Below, piece by piece: positions 7,220-35,647 of a stretch of 64,000 bases of DNA. The notes under the pieces were generated by a model that was not told the origin of the DNA, did no database searches, and worked only from the letters and a program-made list of their open reading frames with translations. Source of the stretch: an uncultured Anaerolineales bacterium. Its GTDB lineage: Bacteria; Chloroflexota; Anaerolineae; Anaerolineales; UBA11858. The number at the start of each line of letters is the position of its first letter. Position 1 is the first letter of the stretch. The stretch is taken from positions 12,819 to 76,818 of the forward strand of contig CAYORF010000001.1 in assembly GCA_964406305.1 (NCBI GenBank). Reading direction: 5' to 3'. A program made the translations under genes and the position numbers.

Positions 7220-7228
7220 TGTTATACT
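7220..7228 (+). promoter_or_regulatory. extended -10 promoter element (TGtTATACT)
   Basis: TGTTATACT lies 34 nt upstream of the ATG at 7262. An AAGGGAG SD lies between them. Confidence 0.4.
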
Positions 7229-7261
7229 TCTTTGAAACCGATTCTAAGGGAGATTTTTAAT

Positions 7262-7513
7262 ATGTGTAAGATATCCATTGAATTTTGTGTGCCTTGAAAT
7301 TACCATCCTCGAGCTTTCAGTTTGGAAGCTGCATTTAAAAAACAATACCCAGATATTATCTCTGAAATTGAGTTGATAGAATCTGCCGGGGGAGCTTTTG
7401 AGATCAAGGTTGATGGGGACTTGATCTATTCGAAATTGGAAACCGGCCGCCATGCGGATCCGCCAGAAATTTTAGGTTTGTTTAAAGCGTATATTGAGGA
7501 GCAAGTTGAATGA
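7262..7513 (+). CDS. SelW/Rdx-family selenoprotein (CxxU), in-frame UGA at 7295-7297
   Basis: The ATG at 7262 (SD AAGGGAG) is in the same frame as track ORF 7322..7513. Translation gives MCKISIEFCVP-U-NYHPRAFSLEAAFKKQYPDIISEIELIESAGGAFEIKVDGDLIYSKLETGRHADPPEIL... TGA falls in CVPU, where Rdx proteins carry CxxC/CxxU. The GGxFE(I/V).VDG.LI(Y/W)SK..GR block is the family signature. The stop overlaps the trpS ATG (ATGA). Confidence 0.8.
7312..7330 (+). promoter_or_regulatory. candidate bacterial SECIS hairpin
   Basis: The stem is AGCUUUC / GGAAGCU (7 pairs including one G-U) with loop AGUUU. It starts 14 nt after the UGA, and a G is at loop position 2. It was found by eye only. Confidence 0.4.
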
Positions 7514-8511
7514 CAGCTAAAAAAGGCAGGGTTTTCTCAGGCGCTAGGCCGACAGGCCGACAGCATCTGGGCAATTACTTGGGCGCGATCAAAAATTATG
7601 TGGCCATGCAGGAGGATTACCGCACTGTTTATTGCATCGTGGATATCCATGCTCTGACCACAGTTGAAACCACCAAAGATCTGGCGTTTAATACACAGGA
7701 AATGGCCCTGGATTGGCTGGCGGCGGGTATGGACCCCAAACAAAGCATTATTTTCATCCAGTCCCATGTCCCGGAAGTTACGGAATTACATACTATTCTG
7801 TCTATGGTGACCCCCTTGGGAAAGTTGACCGCCCTTCCGACCTTTAAGGAAAAAGTGCGTGATAACCCCGATAATGTGAACTATGGATTGGTTGGTTATC
7901 CTGTTTTGATGTCTGCCGATATTTTGCTTTATAAGGCGGATGCAGTGCCAGTGGGCACGGATCAGATTCCACACCTTGAGTTTGCCAGGGAAGTGGTGCG
8001 TTCATTCAATTTCCAATACGGGACTGACGTTCTGGTCGAACCCCAGGCGGTGATTACCAAAACACCTAAAGTTCTGGGTATTGATGGCGAACGCAAGATG
8101 AGCAAAAGTCTCAATAATCACATCGAGCTGGCTGCAACTCCCGAAGAAACAGAAAAACGGGTCATGAGTATGGTGACCGATCCTCAACGGCAGCGCCTCA
8201 GCGACCCGGGTAATCCTGATGTCTGTAATGTTTACACGCTACACAAAATCTTCTCGCCGGCAGATGAGGTTGAGGGCATAAACAAGGACTGCCGCAGTGC
8301 GGATATTGGATGTGTGGATTGTAAACGGATGTTGGCAGCCAATTTGAATAAACACCTTGAACCTTTCAGGGCCAAAAGAAAAGATCTGGAAGGGGATCCG
8401 GATTACGTCAGGGATGTCCTTCTGGACGGCGCCAAGCGAGCCAAAGTGATCGCCTCTGAAACCATGGCAGAAGTGCGGGAAGCGATCGGGTTTTATAGTA
8501 CTAAGGGATAA
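7510..8511 (+). CDS. trpS: tryptophan--tRNA ligase
   Basis: 333 aa class-I aaRS with a HIGH-type block (TGRQHLGNYLG) and KMSKS. Overall architecture is TrpRS-like. Confidence 0.95.
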   Translation: MTAKKGRVFSGARPTGRQHLGNYLGAIKNYVAMQEDYRTVYCIVDIHALTTVETTKDLAFNTQEMALDWLAAGMDPKQSIIFIQSHVPEVTELHTILSMVTPLGKLTALPTFKEKVRDNPDNVNYGLVGYPVLMSADILLYKADAVPVGTDQIPHLEFAREVVRSFNFQYGTDVLVEPQAVITKTPKVLGIDGERKMSKSLNNHIELAATPEETEKRVMSMVTDPQRQRLSDPGNPDVCNVYTLHKIFSPADEVEGINKDCRSADIGCVDCKRMLAANLNKHLEPFRAKRKDLEGDPDYVRDVLLDGAKRAKVIASETMAEVREAIGFYSTKG

Positions 8512-8514
8512 AAA

Positions 8515-8952
8515 TTGAAAGCGATCCTTCAGCGGGTTCAGTTAGGAAGTGTCTCGGTAGGTGGGAAAAAGATAGCCGAGATCCAGGCTGGCCTGGTGAT
8601 CCTGCTGGGAGTTGGCCCTTCTGATACAGAGGTCGAAGCGAATAAGTTGGCCCTGAAATTGGCCCAGATGAGAATTTTCCCGGACGAGAATGGGAAAATG
8701 AATCTCTCTCTGCTGGATGTAGGCGGAGAGGCCCTGGTTGTGCCTCAATTTACCCTATTCGCAGACACCAAAAAAGGACATCGGCCCTCATTTGTCAGTG
8801 CCGGTCCTTCGGAAATCGCTAAACCACTCACAGTTTATTTTGCTTCGGTGCTTCGAGAGCTGGGGGTTCCCACTCAAGAGGGAGAGTTTGGAGCTCATAT
8901 GTTGGTCGAGATCCACAATGATGGACCAGTGACGATTGAGGTGGAGATATAG
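8515..8952 (+). CDS. dtd: D-aminoacyl-tRNA deacylase
   Basis: 145 aa. The N-terminus MKAILQRV, the SQFTL-like block VPQFTLFADTKKGHRPSF and the C-terminal NDGPVT match Dtd. Confidence 0.9.
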   Translation: MKAILQRVQLGSVSVGGKKIAEIQAGLVILLGVGPSDTEVEANKLALKLAQMRIFPDENGKMNLSLLDVGGEALVVPQFTLFADTKKGHRPSFVSAGPSEIAKPLTVYFASVLRELGVPTQEGEFGAHMLVEIHNDGPVTIEVEI

Positions 8953-9048
8953 CGGATGCTCTGCATCCGGACCGGAGTGAAGCTTCGCTTCATGACCGAT
9001 GACGGTGGACGGGAAGAGAGTTCATCCGGAGAAATATTTGATATATAG

Positions 9049-9075
9049 GGACGACGCACCGCGTCGTCCTTTTTT
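9049..9075 (+). terminator. rho-independent terminator of the selW-like/trpS/dtd operon
   Basis: GGACGACGC-ACC-GCGTCGTCC stem followed by TTTTTT. Confidence 0.8.
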
Positions 9076-9108
9076 CTTAAGTTGAGATATTGAGGAGTGA
9101 AGATCAAA

Positions 9109-32758: not shown

Positions 32759-33550
32759 TTACAATCCCAGTGTTTTATCCATCATGGCGGCAACTGCCAT
32801 GTAAACAGGGGAATCATCTCCCAGTTCAATCAGTGGCTTCCCGGTGACATCATATTCCATCACATTCTGGTCCATCGGCACAGGTCCCAGGAATGGGACA
32901 TCGATTTTATCGATCCGTTCCTGGAGAGGTGCAGGGATCTCCCCCGGTACGCGATTGAGAATGAAGTAGGAGTTTTTTACATTAATCTTAAGGTCATCTT
33001 TTAACTCCACAATGTTGTCAGCAGCAGAAAGGCCGCGCTGCGTGGGACCACTGACAATGAATAGATGATCCACATCCTGGGTGGTTCTTCGGCTGAGATG
33101 CTCCATGCCGGCTTCGTTGTCCATCACAATGTAGGGATAATTATGGCTCAGTTTGTCCAGGATATCCCGCAGATTGTGGTTCACTGCACAGTAGCAACCG
33201 GGGCCTTCCGACCGGCCCATGGCGATCAGATCAAATTTCTCACTCTCGATCAAGGCGCTGTGGATTTCATAATCCAAATAATCGTGTTTAGACATGCCCC
33301 CGGCAATGCTGCCCCGGGCAGCCCCCGTGACATTCTGGGCACTCTGGACCTGTTTTAACATATCCTCGCGGATGCCGCCAACTGTGCTGTCCAGATCCAC
33401 ACCCAGGACCATGTTCAGGTTAGCACTGGGGTCAGCATCGATAGCCAAAATGGGTTGTTTTCCTTTATTGATCAAGTATTTTATGATCATGGCTGAAACG
33501 GTGGTTTTTCCTGTTCCGCCTTTTCCTGCCAGGGCAATGGTAGTGGTCAT
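32759..33550 (-). CDS. CooC/AcsF-type MinD-family metal-insertion ATPase (second paralogue)
   Basis: The deviant Walker A is AGKGGTGKTT. Other blocks are AIDADPSANL, the CxC motif GPGCYCAVN, and MDNEAGMEHL. Confidence 0.8.
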   Translation of the reverse strand: MTTTIALAGKGGTGKTTVSAMIIKYLINKGKQPILAIDADPSANLNMVLGVDLDSTVGGIREDMLKQVQSAQNVTGAARGSIAGGMSKHDYLDYEIHSALIESEKFDLIAMGRSEGPGCYCAVNHNLRDILDKLSHNYPYIVMDNEAGMEHLSRRTTQDVDHLFIVSGPTQRGLSAADNIVELKDDLKINVKNSYFILNRVPGEIPAPLQERIDKIDVPFLGPVPMDQNVMEYDVTGKPLIELGDDSPVYMAVAAMMDKTLGL

Positions 33551-33557
33551 AATTGGT

Positions 33558-34352
33558 CTACTCCTCTAAATATTTCTCGGGATATGGTTCCAATAAAGTA
33601 GCAGCAATCCCTTCTGATGCCTTGAATATTGCAGGTACGTGGTCATAAACTGGTTTTCCCAGCCGATCCGCATCCAGTACACCCAGGTCCATAGGTAGGG
33701 TGCCCAGCAGTGGAATACCCGGGGAATTCTTTTCTAAGAAATCTCTTTCTTCTTCAGTGCGGACTTTGTTGCCCACCAACCAGAGACGGTTTAATCCGAT
33801 ATCCTTGGACAGGTCCTTGATCTGAGCCGCTGTTCCCAGACTGCGCTGCGTGGGTTCGACGACAATGACCATAGCATCAACAAAATCTACAGTGGCCCGT
33901 CCCAGATGTTCTACGCCTGCGTACATGTCGAGGATCAATATATCATCTTCCCGGAACATCAAATGTGTGAAGAGGGTTTTTAACATGGCGCTCTCTGGAC
34001 AAATACAACCAGAACCGCCCAGGTCAACACTTCCCATTTCTAACAAGCGGACACCTCGATGAGTTACGCTGAAACGTTCAGGGATATCGTCTACGCGGGG
34101 ATTGAGTGTAAAAAATCCACCCACTGTCCCAGGTTTGGCGCCAGTGCGGTCTTCTATCAGCTGGTCCATTTCAGCAATCGGGCTTAATTTTGCCTGTAAA
34201 TCTTCCGGAAGGCCTAATGCGCCAGCCAAACAGGGTGAGGGATCGGCGTCCACAGCCAGGACATCTCTGCCCTGGTCCGCATAATATTGGGCTAATAAAG
34301 CTGACAGGGTTGTTTTTCCAACTCCCCCTTTTCCACTGATTGCTAATTTCAT
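33558..34352 (-). CDS. cooC: CooC-type nickel-insertion accessory ATPase homologue
   Basis: The blocks are SGKGGVGKTT, AVDADPSPCL, LNPRVDDIPERF, the CxC motif GSGCICPE, and DMYAGVEHLGR. It is collinear with what I recall of Rhodospirillum rubrum CooC. Confidence 0.85.
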   Translation of the reverse strand: MKLAISGKGGVGKTTLSALLAQYYADQGRDVLAVDADPSPCLAGALGLPEDLQAKLSPIAEMDQLIEDRTGAKPGTVGGFFTLNPRVDDIPERFSVTHRGVRLLEMGSVDLGGSGCICPESAMLKTLFTHLMFREDDILILDMYAGVEHLGRATVDFVDAMVIVVEPTQRSLGTAAQIKDLSKDIGLNRLWLVGNKVRTEEERDFLEKNSPGIPLLGTLPMDLGVLDADRLGKPVYDHVPAIFKASEGIAATLLEPYPEKYLEE

Positions 34353-34391
34353 GTCCTTCTCCTTGCTTTATCTGTGATATACGGCAAAATA

Positions 34392-35024
34392 TTATTCTGC
34401 GATCAATTTTCCAACTAGCATACTTCCCAGGATTGCGCAGCCGTCGGTGGGTAAGTGGTAATCCGCGATATCCTCAAAAAGGATCTTGTAGGAAGGAGGA
34501 AATTCATCGTCTCCTTTCCAATACACGATCAGGATTGCGATCTGGGGGAGGATCTGGTAGCGGAATGCCCCATCTCCAAAATCGACTTTGATTCCACACA
34601 GAGCATCATTCCTGGTTTCAAACTTATCATAATCCGTCTGGAAATATTGAGTCAGTTTCTGAGCAGTATATCCCTGAAATGCGGAATTATAAAATTGCCC
34701 GTCTGCCAATTCTGAAAAAGAGATCCAGTTTCCTGTAGGAGGAGATCCTTTGGAGGAATGGAAGTAGTACATGATCATGGCTTGATGAATGGGGGGAAGG
34801 GGGTGTTGGGATTCAGTGTCCCTGGCTAGAAAATCCCGGCTGAATAACTGAACAGGTTTTCCCCAAAAGAGAAAATTAAAAAAACTCTCCCCATCCTCTG
34901 ATCGCAGAGTGGTCCCCGTTAATTCAGCCAGTTGGTTCACATCCCTTTGAAAGAGATCTTCCCGGAGTTCATCGCTCCGGCGCTCTAAAGGCTCCTGGTC
35001 TTTGTTCATGACAAAATCGCTCAT
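34392..35024 (-). CDS. DUF3786-like protein of unknown function
   Basis: 210 aa. Blocks such as WISFSELADGQFYNSAFQGY and GDGAFRYQILPQIAILIVYWKGDDEFPPSYKILFED resemble DUF3786 as I remember it. The start overlaps the stop of the upstream selenoprotein gene (ATGA). Confidence 0.55.
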   Translation of the reverse strand: MSDFVMNKDQEPLERRSDELREDLFQRDVNQLAELTGTTLRSEDGESFFNFLFWGKPVQLFSRDFLARDTESQHPLPPIHQAMIMYYFHSSKGSPPTGNWISFSELADGQFYNSAFQGYTAQKLTQYFQTDYDKFETRNDALCGIKVDFGDGAFRYQILPQIAILIVYWKGDDEFPPSYKILFEDIADYHLPTDGCAILGSMLVGKLIAE

Positions 35025-35647
35025 GATATGTTGTCCTCTTGGAGATGTTTCTGAATGGCTCGTTTTAACTCACCTGGTTTAAAGCCAAAAGGTCCTAATC
35101 CTCCGGCATAGACTACAAGCCCGTTTTTGTCGATCAGAAATAAACGGGTTGGCCAGGCAGCATAATTTTTGTTCACCTGGTCATTCATTTCGTCCACATA
35201 TGTCTTAACCCCATACTGGAGGGATTCTGCGCAATCTCCTGCGGCATTGCGTCGTTCCTCAATGGTTGTGGGGTCGTAGATCTCCCAAGAAACCTTTGAG
35301 CCAGAGAGCCGCAGTAAAATGTTCATAAATCCTTTACCGAACCACCAGCCATCTATTGGATGGGCTTCCCGGATGTAAACTTTTATAAATTGGATTTGCT
35401 CCTGAAAGGACTGGTAGATTTCATTGAGACTCACGGTCCCGTTAACATAGGGTGGTCAGGTAAAACTCCCAAAAATCAGGACAACAGGTTTTGCTCCTTG
35501 AAAGCTGCTTAATAGAATGGGATTTTCACCATTGATATCTCTCAGCTCAAAATCAGGGGCTGGATCGCCAATCTTGGGTGCGTCGGCATCGTATTTCTTT
35601 TGCCAGGAAGTTGCTTCCTGACGGTTTTTTATCGTAGCCATAATCAC
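35021..35647 (-). CDS. iodothyronine-deiodinase-family (thioredoxin-fold) selenoprotein; in-frame UGA at 35456-35458
   Basis: Track ORFs 35456..35647 and 35021..35434 share one frame and are separated only by TGA plus 7 sense codons. The junction reads ...PVVLIFGSFT-U-PPYVNGTVSLNEIY... It is followed by FIKVYIREAHPIDGWW and RLFLIDKNGLVVYAGGLGPFGF, the three hallmark deiodinase blocks. The gene has 208 codons with Sec at codon 64. Confidence 0.85.
35426..35440 (-). promoter_or_regulatory. candidate SECIS hairpin (weak)
   Basis: mRNA GGGAC-CGUGA-GUCUC forms 5 pairs including one G-U. The stem starts 15 nt after the UGA, and a G is at loop position 2. It is short, so confidence is low. Confidence 0.25.

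Follow-up and report, generated by a model that had tools for sequence, protein, structure and literature searches.

Does the TGA at positions 7295-7297 of this DNA end a short reading frame, or does it encode selenocysteine (Sec, U) within a longer gene that mechanical gene calling has truncated? The codon lies in a 64,000-nucleotide stretch from an uncultured Anaerolineales bacterium (contig CAYORF010000001.1, positions 12,819 to 76,818), the whole of which is referred to here as the window. A mechanically called open reading frame (ORF) of 63 amino acids opens at TTG 7322, inside the apical loop of a hairpin at 7312-7330, and ends where trpS, the gene for tryptophanyl-tRNA synthetase (TrpRS), begins. 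An earlier note on this DNA, made from the sequence alone, proposed that ATG 7262 opens the same frame and that the full product is a SelW/Rdx-type selenoprotein, missed by gene calling on account of its Sec-UGA. That core reading is supported by profile searches, by conservation of the TGA, by covariation in the hairpin and by linkage to trpS. We put at about 90% the probability that 7262-7513 is a genuine SelW-like (Rdx) gene with a CxxU motif, decoded via a selenocysteine insertion sequence (SECIS) in its coding region and standing first in an Rdx-trpS-dtd unit.

The frame itself can be read directly from the DNA. Translation from ATG 7262-7264 gives an 83-residue product that starts MCKISIEFCVP-U-NYHPRAF, and the TGA at 7295-7297 is the sole interruption of the frame, which continues into the called ORF (7322..7513) and closes with a TGA at 7511-7513. 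With U read as C, the product scored 71.1 bits against the Pfam Rdx model PF10262 over profile positions 1-70 of 74 (cut-off, 22.6), and the truncated ORF from 7322 reached 41.9 bits, over positions 21-70 only. The NCBIfam model TIGR02174 (CXXU_selWTH) gave 63.6 bits over positions 1-69 of 74 (cut-off, 34.2). The top-scoring NCBIfam model was the Campylobacter-type NF041051 (SelTWH_Campy), with 83.3 bits over positions 1-69 of 70; as its equivalog cut-off is 88 bits, the protein is related to that orthologous group and falls outside it. A profile built from seven orthologues matched the solved Rdx structures 2ljk, 2fa8, 3dex, 2p0g, 2obk, 2ojl, 2oka and 2npb in the PDB, with E-values of 1e-10 to 9e-3, covering residues 3-71 and aligning the CxxC of these proteins with C-V-P-U. 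At this motif, ISIEF-C-V-P-U is placed against YC-TQ-C of Atu0228 and YC-EP-C of MIEN1. Because the hidden Markov model scores are full length and eight PDB entries match with their CxxC aligned, we assign the product by sequence to the SelW/SelT/SelH (Rdx) family, and the same eight structures predict a thioredoxin-like beta-alpha-beta-beta-beta-alpha fold. The Rdx layout described in the earlier note therefore extends over the entire protein, including the part that precedes the TGA, and the TGA holds the second redox position of CxxU, aligned to the Cys of CVPC homologues in Chloroflexota.

Relatives of the gene keep the same arrangement, even where their annotation does not. A protein search returned 142 close homologues from Anaerolineales, other Chloroflexota metagenome-assembled genomes (MAGs) and metagenomes, some of them already named "Rdx family protein" or "selenoprotein W-related protein." Among the matches listed, 117 of 120 have an annotated start 3' of the TGA and a length of 49-66 amino acids. 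The remaining three (P0002, P0015 and P0037) read CVPW; their DNA has TGA, translation under table 11 fails to reproduce the recorded W, and the W stems from the genetic code that the gene caller assumed. Homologues are thus annotated as if they began at the Met of 7322, but their DNA keeps the extension through the TGA. Related loci are numbered L001 upward, of which L001-L023 and L025 make up a clade sharing the CVP-U motif and L037-L116 come from metagenomes; every fetched locus of the CVP-U clade retains the ATG, the TGA and the 11 codons that precede the TGA. Counting all sources, the TGA is invariant in 26 CVP-U clade loci (23 of 23 distinct sequences) and in 53 loci of other subfamilies, and across 76 distinct sequences the interrupting stop is always TGA, never TAA or TAG. 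Codons ahead of it vary synonymously within the clade (Cys as TGT or TGC; Val as GTG, GTT or GTC), so the peptide 5' of the TGA appears to be under purifying selection. More distant homologues, ten from Chloroflexota (L024 and L026-L034) and two from haloarchaea, contain the same N-terminal strand and an uninterrupted SIEYCVPC, and at least 12 homologues have Cys (TGC or TGT) at the Sec position.

The other element expected from the earlier note was a SECIS-like hairpin, AGCUUUC/AGUUU/GGAAGCU, beginning 14 nucleotides 3' of the UGA. By the published consensus, a bacterial SECIS (bSECIS) element has an apical loop of 3-9 nucleotides on an (upper) stem of 4-16 bp, a G at loop position 1 or 2 (as a rule N1-G-[G/U]-N-N2), a distance from UGA to loop of 16-37 nucleotides, and a minimum free energy no higher than -7.5 kcal/mol (PMC13188914). 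In geometry the window hairpin fits, with its loop 22 nucleotides from the UGA and G as the first loop position (21 nucleotides and the second position if the loop is drawn as AGUUU). Each of the 23 distinct CVP-U clade sequences has a hairpin at this offset, in one of three versions of the stem (GCUUUC/GGAAGC, GCCCUC/GAGGGU and GCCAUC/GAUGAGC) that alter the encoded residues on both arms (F..EA, L..EG and I..MS, respectively) with the pairing kept. Codons at the apex are synonymously frozen, Ser being AGT in 23/23 sequences and Leu TTG or TTA in 23/23; neighbouring Pro, Val, Tyr and Ala residues each use three or four synonymous codons.

Covariation was seen once sequences were separated by hairpin type. 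In 22 Sec forms from several subfamilies, the type A helix has 89% of its cells paired, and four of its seven pairs show compensatory double changes. Its covariation score of 0.448 compares with a shuffle mean of 0.226 and was reached by 0 of 500 shuffles, and controls in which the register was slid gave no more than 57% of cells paired and scores no higher than 0.174. The type B helix, found with a CGUGA loop in a sister subfamily (YCAV-U-HY), has 93% of cells paired and three pairs with double changes.

Several results weigh against reading the locus as a selenoprotein gene. The hairpin is short and AU-rich, its energy straddles the -7.5 kcal/mol limit (-8.2 kcal/mol in a 56-nucleotide context, -7.0 as an isolated stem-loop), and its z-score against shuffles of the 56-nucleotide region is only -0.52. 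The generic bSECIS criteria are themselves permissive, being passed by 22% of dinucleotide shuffles and by 4 of 12 Cys forms. RNAalifold, run on the first 23-sequence alignment, missed the helix and gave a weak structure unrelated to it, since a one-nucleotide register shift or bulge separates the three versions of the stem; pair counts in a single register gave modest support only, and it was the split by hairpin type that resolved the helix. A position-restricted hairpin (at least 5 bp, G at loop position 1 or 2, loop starting 17-22 nucleotides after the codon) was present in 70 of 73 distinct Sec forms, in 2 of 12 Cys forms and in 5.8% of shuffles, a contrast that favours a SECIS, but its limits were set after the data had been seen. 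Outside the hairpin, no selA, selB, selD or tRNA-Sec was found in the 64-kb window by Rfam, ARAGORN or Pfam searches (the last on 47 long ORFs), nor were these genes found in about 640 kb of related DNA, and a sigma-70 -35/-10 scanner gave no promoter call and no -35 match for the putative promoter element TGTTATACT upstream of the gene. Since the generic criteria discriminate poorly, we relied on positional conservation and covariation. The energy of the hairpin alone is unremarkable, and what lifts it above chance is the comparative evidence: conservation of the TGA and of the N-terminal coding sequence, the constant offset, and covariation. On that evidence, the hairpin at 7312-7330 is the predicted SECIS element of the gene, and its placement after the UGA is as the earlier note described it.

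Whether the source genome decodes Sec bears on all of this. No tRNAs were found in 21 related loci, and a tblastn search of related loci with approximate E. coli SelA, SelB and SelD probes gave a single match, which in L089 is EF-Tu. The window does hold a second missed selenoprotein gene, a deiodinase-like ORF on the reverse strand. With U read as C, its product scored 94.4 bits against Pfam T4_deiodinase in a match that spans the TGA, and within ...KPVVLIFGSFT-U-PPYVNG... the segment FGSFT-U-PPY is matched in the alignment by FGSCT-C-PPF from the catalytic domain of Dio3 (4tr3). In Dio3, the position opposite the U is that of the catalytic Sec, replaced by Cys in the protein that was crystallised. 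A weak hairpin, GGGAC-CGUGA-GUCUC, follows 20 nucleotides after this UGA; its loop is that of the type B Rdx SECIS, and perhaps this loop type serves the deiodinase-like gene too, in a region whose overall fold is not significant (z = +0.9). The Sec-decoding trait has been reported for the Chloroflexi phylum (PMC5322559; PMC1794560), as has tRNA-Sec (PMC5389517). A second gene in the window with TGA at an active-site position, taken with these phylum-level reports, argues that the genome decodes Sec, and we infer that it encodes the corresponding machinery.

What else could the interrupted frame be? Were the UGA a real stop, the product would be a 63-residue protein made from TTG 7322, and 7262-7297 would be a short upstream ORF or a non-coding leader. 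The downstream starts annotated in those 117 of 120 listed homologues are what this view predicts, and the truncated ORF keeps a 41.9-bit Pfam Rdx match. Such a product would, however, lack strand beta-1 and the family-defining CxxC/U motif, and its TTG start would sit in the apical loop of the hairpin without a Shine-Dalgarno sequence. Nor does a real stop agree with 11 codons 5' of the TGA in which all orthologues keep the peptide and vary at synonymous sites, with Cys forms that are continuous across the TGA position, or with the exclusive use of TGA among the 76 distinct sequences, and we regard it as very unlikely. Less probable still is a decaying pseudogene, in which a Cys-type Rdx gene suffered a chance TGY-to-TGA nonsense mutation. 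Cys forms do exist in the same phylum, and the Cys form at L042, with its internal TAA, shows that decay occurs. Yet the same TGA is shared by 26 clade loci and 53 loci of other subfamilies at 64-93% protein identity, further stops and frameshifts are absent, purifying selection is evident on both sides of the TGA, and the RNA hairpin co-evolves. The relatives also differ in flanking genes and sequences, so they are not assembly duplicates, and comparison among them as good as refutes the pseudogene reading.

A genetic code in which UGA is read as Trp or Gly (table 4 or 25) deserves hardly any credence either. The three homologues recorded with W at the Sec position would suit it, but their DNA is TGA and table 11 does not yield the W; in addition, Trp would destroy a CxxC/U motif that the Cys homologues keep. 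In the window, TGA is a normal stop that ends 8 of 48 long ORFs, the Rdx gene included, and the Trp codon TGG makes up 1.5% of codons. Because TGA ends ORFs and TGG has a normal frequency, a code with TGA as a sense codon is effectively excluded. The adjacency to trpS suggests one more alternative, that the UGA-containing ORF is mainly a regulatory leader, in which the balance between termination and decoding, by Sec-tRNA or by the near-cognate Trp-tRNA(CCA), would adjust trpS translation by way of the stop-start overlap. UGA is a near-cognate codon of tRNA-Trp, the ATGA overlap is present in the window, and the Rdx-trpS adjacency is very strongly conserved. But Cys forms with TGC or TGT at this position (L028, L029, L031-L033 and L103) keep the trpS linkage, so the linkage is independent of the UGA. 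Only the window has the overlap (gaps elsewhere are 0-156 nucleotides), trpS has a GAGGAG Shine-Dalgarno sequence of its own, and the ORF encodes a complete conserved protein domain, not a leader peptide. A leader function of this kind is thus highly improbable, and the narrower idea of the UGA as a Trp-sensing device for trpS was rejected since Cys forms keep the same linkage.

If the locus is a selenoprotein gene, as we favour, the UGA at 7295-7297 would encode Sec12, the second redox residue of CxxU in an 83-residue protein of predicted thioredoxin fold. The hairpin at 7312-7330 would recruit SelB-GTP-Sec-tRNA(Sec) to a ribosome paused at the UGA, and Sec would be inserted with no termination. 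Judging from its family, the mature protein would be a thiol/selenol oxidoreductase that cycles via a selenenylsulfide between Cys9 and Sec12 of the same molecule. The TGnTATACT element would drive transcription, with Rdx standing first in an Rdx-trpS-dtd unit that is kept throughout an Anaerolineae-level lineage of Chloroflexota. As trpS has its own Shine-Dalgarno sequence, its translation would be independent of UGA read-through.

The start signals that the earlier note had listed, AAGGGAG and TGtTATACT upstream of ATG 7262, are all present where it placed them (Table 1), and relatives retain them. TG(T/A)TATACT lies at approximately the same distance 5' of the Rdx ATG in 23 of 23 Sec-clade loci, and (A)GGAG is at the same place in the same 23 of 23; this conservation points to a promoter function for the TGnTATACT element.

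Around the UGA itself, codon choice is constrained as well. The Pro codon directly 5' of it (7292-7294) is CCT in 22 of the 22 clade sequences with Pro there, all four Pro codons are used at the other conserved Pro (7307-7309), and an A invariably follows the UGA in clade sequences. The fixed CCT before the UGA and the A after it may represent a context requirement for recoding.

Table 1. Coordinates of the predicted features of the Rdx-trpS-dtd region and of the deiodinase-like gene in the window
Feature	Position	Strand	Remarks
Extended -10-like promoter element TGTTATACT (TGnTATACT)	7220..7228	+	Putative, from conservation
Shine-Dalgarno AAGGGAG for Rdx gene	7246..7252	+	9 nt before ATG
Rdx/SelW-like selenoprotein coding sequence	7262..7513	+	83 codons; Sec is codon 12
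Redox motif codons TGT GTG CCT TGA, C-V-P-U (CxxU)	7286..7297	+	
Predicted Sec-encoding UGA	7295..7297	+	Basis: conservation across orthologues
Candidate bacterial SECIS hairpin	7312..7330	+	8-bp stem AGCUUUCA/UGGAAGCU with GUU loop (equivalent to 7 bp with AGUUU loop)
Shine-Dalgarno GAGGAG for trpS	7496..7501	+	Within Rdx C-terminal codons (..EE); 8 nt before ATG
trpS, tryptophanyl-tRNA synthetase of predicted [4Fe-4S] type	7510..8511	+	Best PDB matches 2el7 and 2g36
dtd, D-aminoacyl-tRNA deacylase	8515..8952	+	Third gene of unit; ORF and orthologues
Terminator-like hairpin after dtd	9047..9081	+	11-bp stem with 7 G-C pairs, then T-run; consensus scan
Deiodinase-like selenoprotein gene (candidate)	35021..35641	-	206-codon ORF; Sec codon 35456-35458; single in-frame-TGA scan of unannotated space

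The gene order around Rdx recurs in relatives, in agreement with its proposed place as first cistron of a trpS-dtd operon. Wherever a Sec-clade genome locus includes downstream DNA, Rdx, trpS and dtd follow one another, and five Cys-form loci of Pelolinea and Anaerolineaceae have this order too. The dtd orthologues in L001, L002, L005 and L007 match Pfam PF02580 (Tyr_Deacylase), and the likely end of the operon is the hairpin that follows dtd, a putative terminator. The further proposal that Rdx and trpS are translationally coupled stands only in part. The Rdx stop does overlap the trpS start by four nucleotides (ATGA 7510-7513), but it does so in the window alone, where a change of TAA to CAA has added the residues QVE and created the overlap; relatives end ...EE-TAA and leave 0-13 nucleotides to the trpS ATG. 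In a set of 81 loci, gaps run up to 156 nucleotides (-1 to 13 in about half, 17-156 in the rest), and -4 is seen in the window alone. The C-terminal ..EE or ..KE codons that supply GAGGAG or AAGGAG are kept before trpS in relatives. With the overlap unconserved and trpS having its own GAGGAG, these sequences do not support an obligatory coupling.

The window TrpRS contains Cys239-x21-Cys261-x6-Cys268-x2-Cys271 in its anticodon-binding domain (nucleotides 8224-8322, forward strand), and all four residues align to cysteines of Thermotoga maritima TrpRS (2g36). In that enzyme, a [4Fe-4S] cluster is held by Cys236, Cys259, Cys266 and Cys269, and the motif of Fe-S TrpRS has been defined as C-x(21-24)-C-x6-C-x2-C (PMC2954223). 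We therefore predict that the window TrpRS is of the [4Fe-4S] type and binds a cluster. Every intact Rdx-linked trpS has the four-Cys motif.

How stable is the link between the two genes? A scan of metagenome contigs with the window TrpRS domain gave 80 loci at 63-88% identity. Where enough upstream DNA was available, Rdx lies directly 5' of trpS in 60 of 62 (53 Sec forms, two Cys forms and five cut by a contig end), L101 and L104 being the sole loci of the 62 without it. Upstream of Rdx the neighbours are shuffled (Memo, which flanks it in the window, recurs in 1 of 41 metagenome loci), and dtd directly follows trpS in 44 of 60, so no adjacency in this neighbourhood is more stable than Rdx-trpS. 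The linkage that the earlier note had asked to be traced in relatives is thus seen both in these metagenome loci and in all Sec-clade genome loci. Beyond this group, L117-L119, which are 38-52% identical, have the four-Cys TrpRS motif and no upstream Rdx gene, and several Cys-type Rdx genes of Chloroflexota lie apart from trpS. A protein search for Thermotoga-like Fe-S TrpRS gave fragments only, those from Thermotogota lying at contig ends, so that this comparison covered the long-contig loci L117-L119. The trpS genes of L117-L119 are each split into two called fragments, apparently by frameshift errors in long-read assemblies, and because trpS is split in such assemblies many "short TrpRS" proteins have entered the databases.

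These observations raise the possibility that the Rdx selenoprotein is a dedicated redox partner of the downstream [4Fe-4S] TrpRS, a reading that we consider rather unlikely as matters stand. In that role it might keep the four cluster-ligating Cys residues reduced, aid the re-insertion or repair of an oxidised cluster, or relay the redox state to the charging of tRNA-Trp. For it speak the retention of the trpS linkage by Sec and Cys forms alike and the four-Cys motif of all linked TrpRS. Against it, the linked loci may all belong to one class, Anaerolineae, in which vertical inheritance of the operon could account for the adjacency, and L117-L119, L101, L104 and the Cys-type Rdx genes away from trpS are without the pairing. 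The literature searched, of which coverage was incomplete, yielded no paper that connects SelW/Rdx with TrpRS and none about the selenoproteomes of Anaerolineae; given that coverage, this is weak evidence. If true, a redox partnership would give both bacterial SelW-like proteins and the Fe-S cluster of TrpRS their first functional context.

A large sister subfamily of Rdx selenoproteins (YCAV-U-HYT.RAVSL, within L037-L116) also lies directly 5' of Fe-S-type trpS. Its SECIS is GGGCC-GUGA-GCCUG, with the CGUGA loop 17 nucleotides after the UGA (for example, L049:429-485 and L051:1630-1686). As this subfamily uses a different SECIS version, two hairpin types occupy overlapping codons of orthologous genes. 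Within a Pelolinea-like subfamily, L116:1665-1898 is a Sec form (YCRV-U-NF) with the hairpin CUGCCA-GUU-UGGCAG, and L028:3388-3606 and L103:1669-1905 are Cys forms; by these sequences, Sec/Cys exchange happened there as well. The Cys form at L028 keeps a hairpin, UGCCAG-GAAU-CUGGCA, at the same offset; the hairpin (-8.4 kcal/mol) passes the bSECIS criteria and may be a fossil SECIS. Sec and Cys forms together with two SECIS versions at one orthologous position make a natural data set for Sec/Cys exchange and for the evolution of SECIS elements inside coding sequence.

Some individual loci call for comment. L042:1671-1916 is a Cys-form Rdx gene (VYCCVC) 5' of trpS with an internal TAA (..LLYS-stop-LATG..), and is either a decaying copy or a sequencing error. 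One MAG (MFD03804.bin.2.113) contributes two Rdx(Sec)-trpS-dtd loci on separate contigs, L010 and L011, the latter with an interrupted trpS that leaves a reading frame of 166 amino acids only; the pair may reflect strain mixing in the bin or a degenerating duplicate. L016 (CAXMRF010000015.1), binned as "uncultured Nitrosomonadaceae," carries the full order PriA-Memo-Rdx(Sec)-trpS-dtd at 70-83% identity to the window proteins, and is probably a mis-binned Chloroflexota contig. In the window itself, the stop of the deiodinase-like gene, TGA, overlaps the ATG of a downstream DUF3786 gene (ATGA 35021-35024). This DUF3786 gene and two adjacent genes for CbiA/CooC-like P-loop ATPases lie directly 3' on the same strand (32759-35024, reverse), and the four genes may form one operon.

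A practical consequence concerns annotation. It is wrong for the window gene and for nearly every relative in the databases, 117 of 120 among the matches listed being truncated and three having a spurious Trp, and because of this the selenoproteomes of Anaerolineae are under-counted and the redox-active N-terminus is absent from protein databases. The Rdx/SelW family is well known and nonetheless has no assigned function in bacteria. Its strongly conserved pairing with an Fe-S TrpRS is a speculative but testable lead to what SelW-like proteins do and to why some TrpRS enzymes hold a [4Fe-4S] cluster.

Like the E. coli fdhF-type element and the bSECIS consensus, the window hairpin is a stem-loop in the coding sequence just 3' of the UGA, and its small apical loop with G then U (A-GUU-U) fits N1-G-[G/U]-N-N2. 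At 8 bp and -7 to -8 kcal/mol, it falls short of the classical fdhF element in length and stability, and it is unbulged, unlike sister versions with a one-nucleotide bulge. The window TrpRS matches the four-Cys cluster motif of Thermotoga maritima TrpRS (TM0492, 2g36), here known from sequence, and the paper on that enzyme mentions no Rdx partner (PMC2954223). Among solved Rdx proteins, Atu0228 of Agrobacterium (2fa8), SAV_2001 of Streptomyces (3dex), human MIEN1/C17orf37 (2ljk) and mouse SelW (2npb) all align at CxxC/CxxU, but the bacterial ones differ in being Cys forms of about 105 amino acids, with no known trpS link and no assigned function.

The closest counterparts are the bacterial SelW-like selenoproteins of Zhang and Gladyshev, from the Sargasso Sea and Global Ocean Sampling (GOS) data. 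The earlier note spoke of a selenoprotein of unknown function, but its kind is well established: such CxxU proteins have been known since 2005 and a curated NCBIfam model exists for them. They have the same domain, a similar size of about 80 amino acids and CxxU right after strand beta-1, and in them, as in the window clade, an in-frame stem-loop follows the Sec-UGA and Cys homologues exist. The window clade differs in its source, Anaerolineae-level MAGs of Chloroflexota, a phylum for which a 2006 survey knew just 3 selenoproteins (PMC1794560). It also differs in a lineage-specific motif, SIE(F/Y)CVP-U-NY ... GRHADPPEI, and in its fixed position immediately 5' of trpS. The Rdx gene is thus ordinary for its family, and its one unusual trait is its place directly before an Fe-S-type trpS across the lineage.

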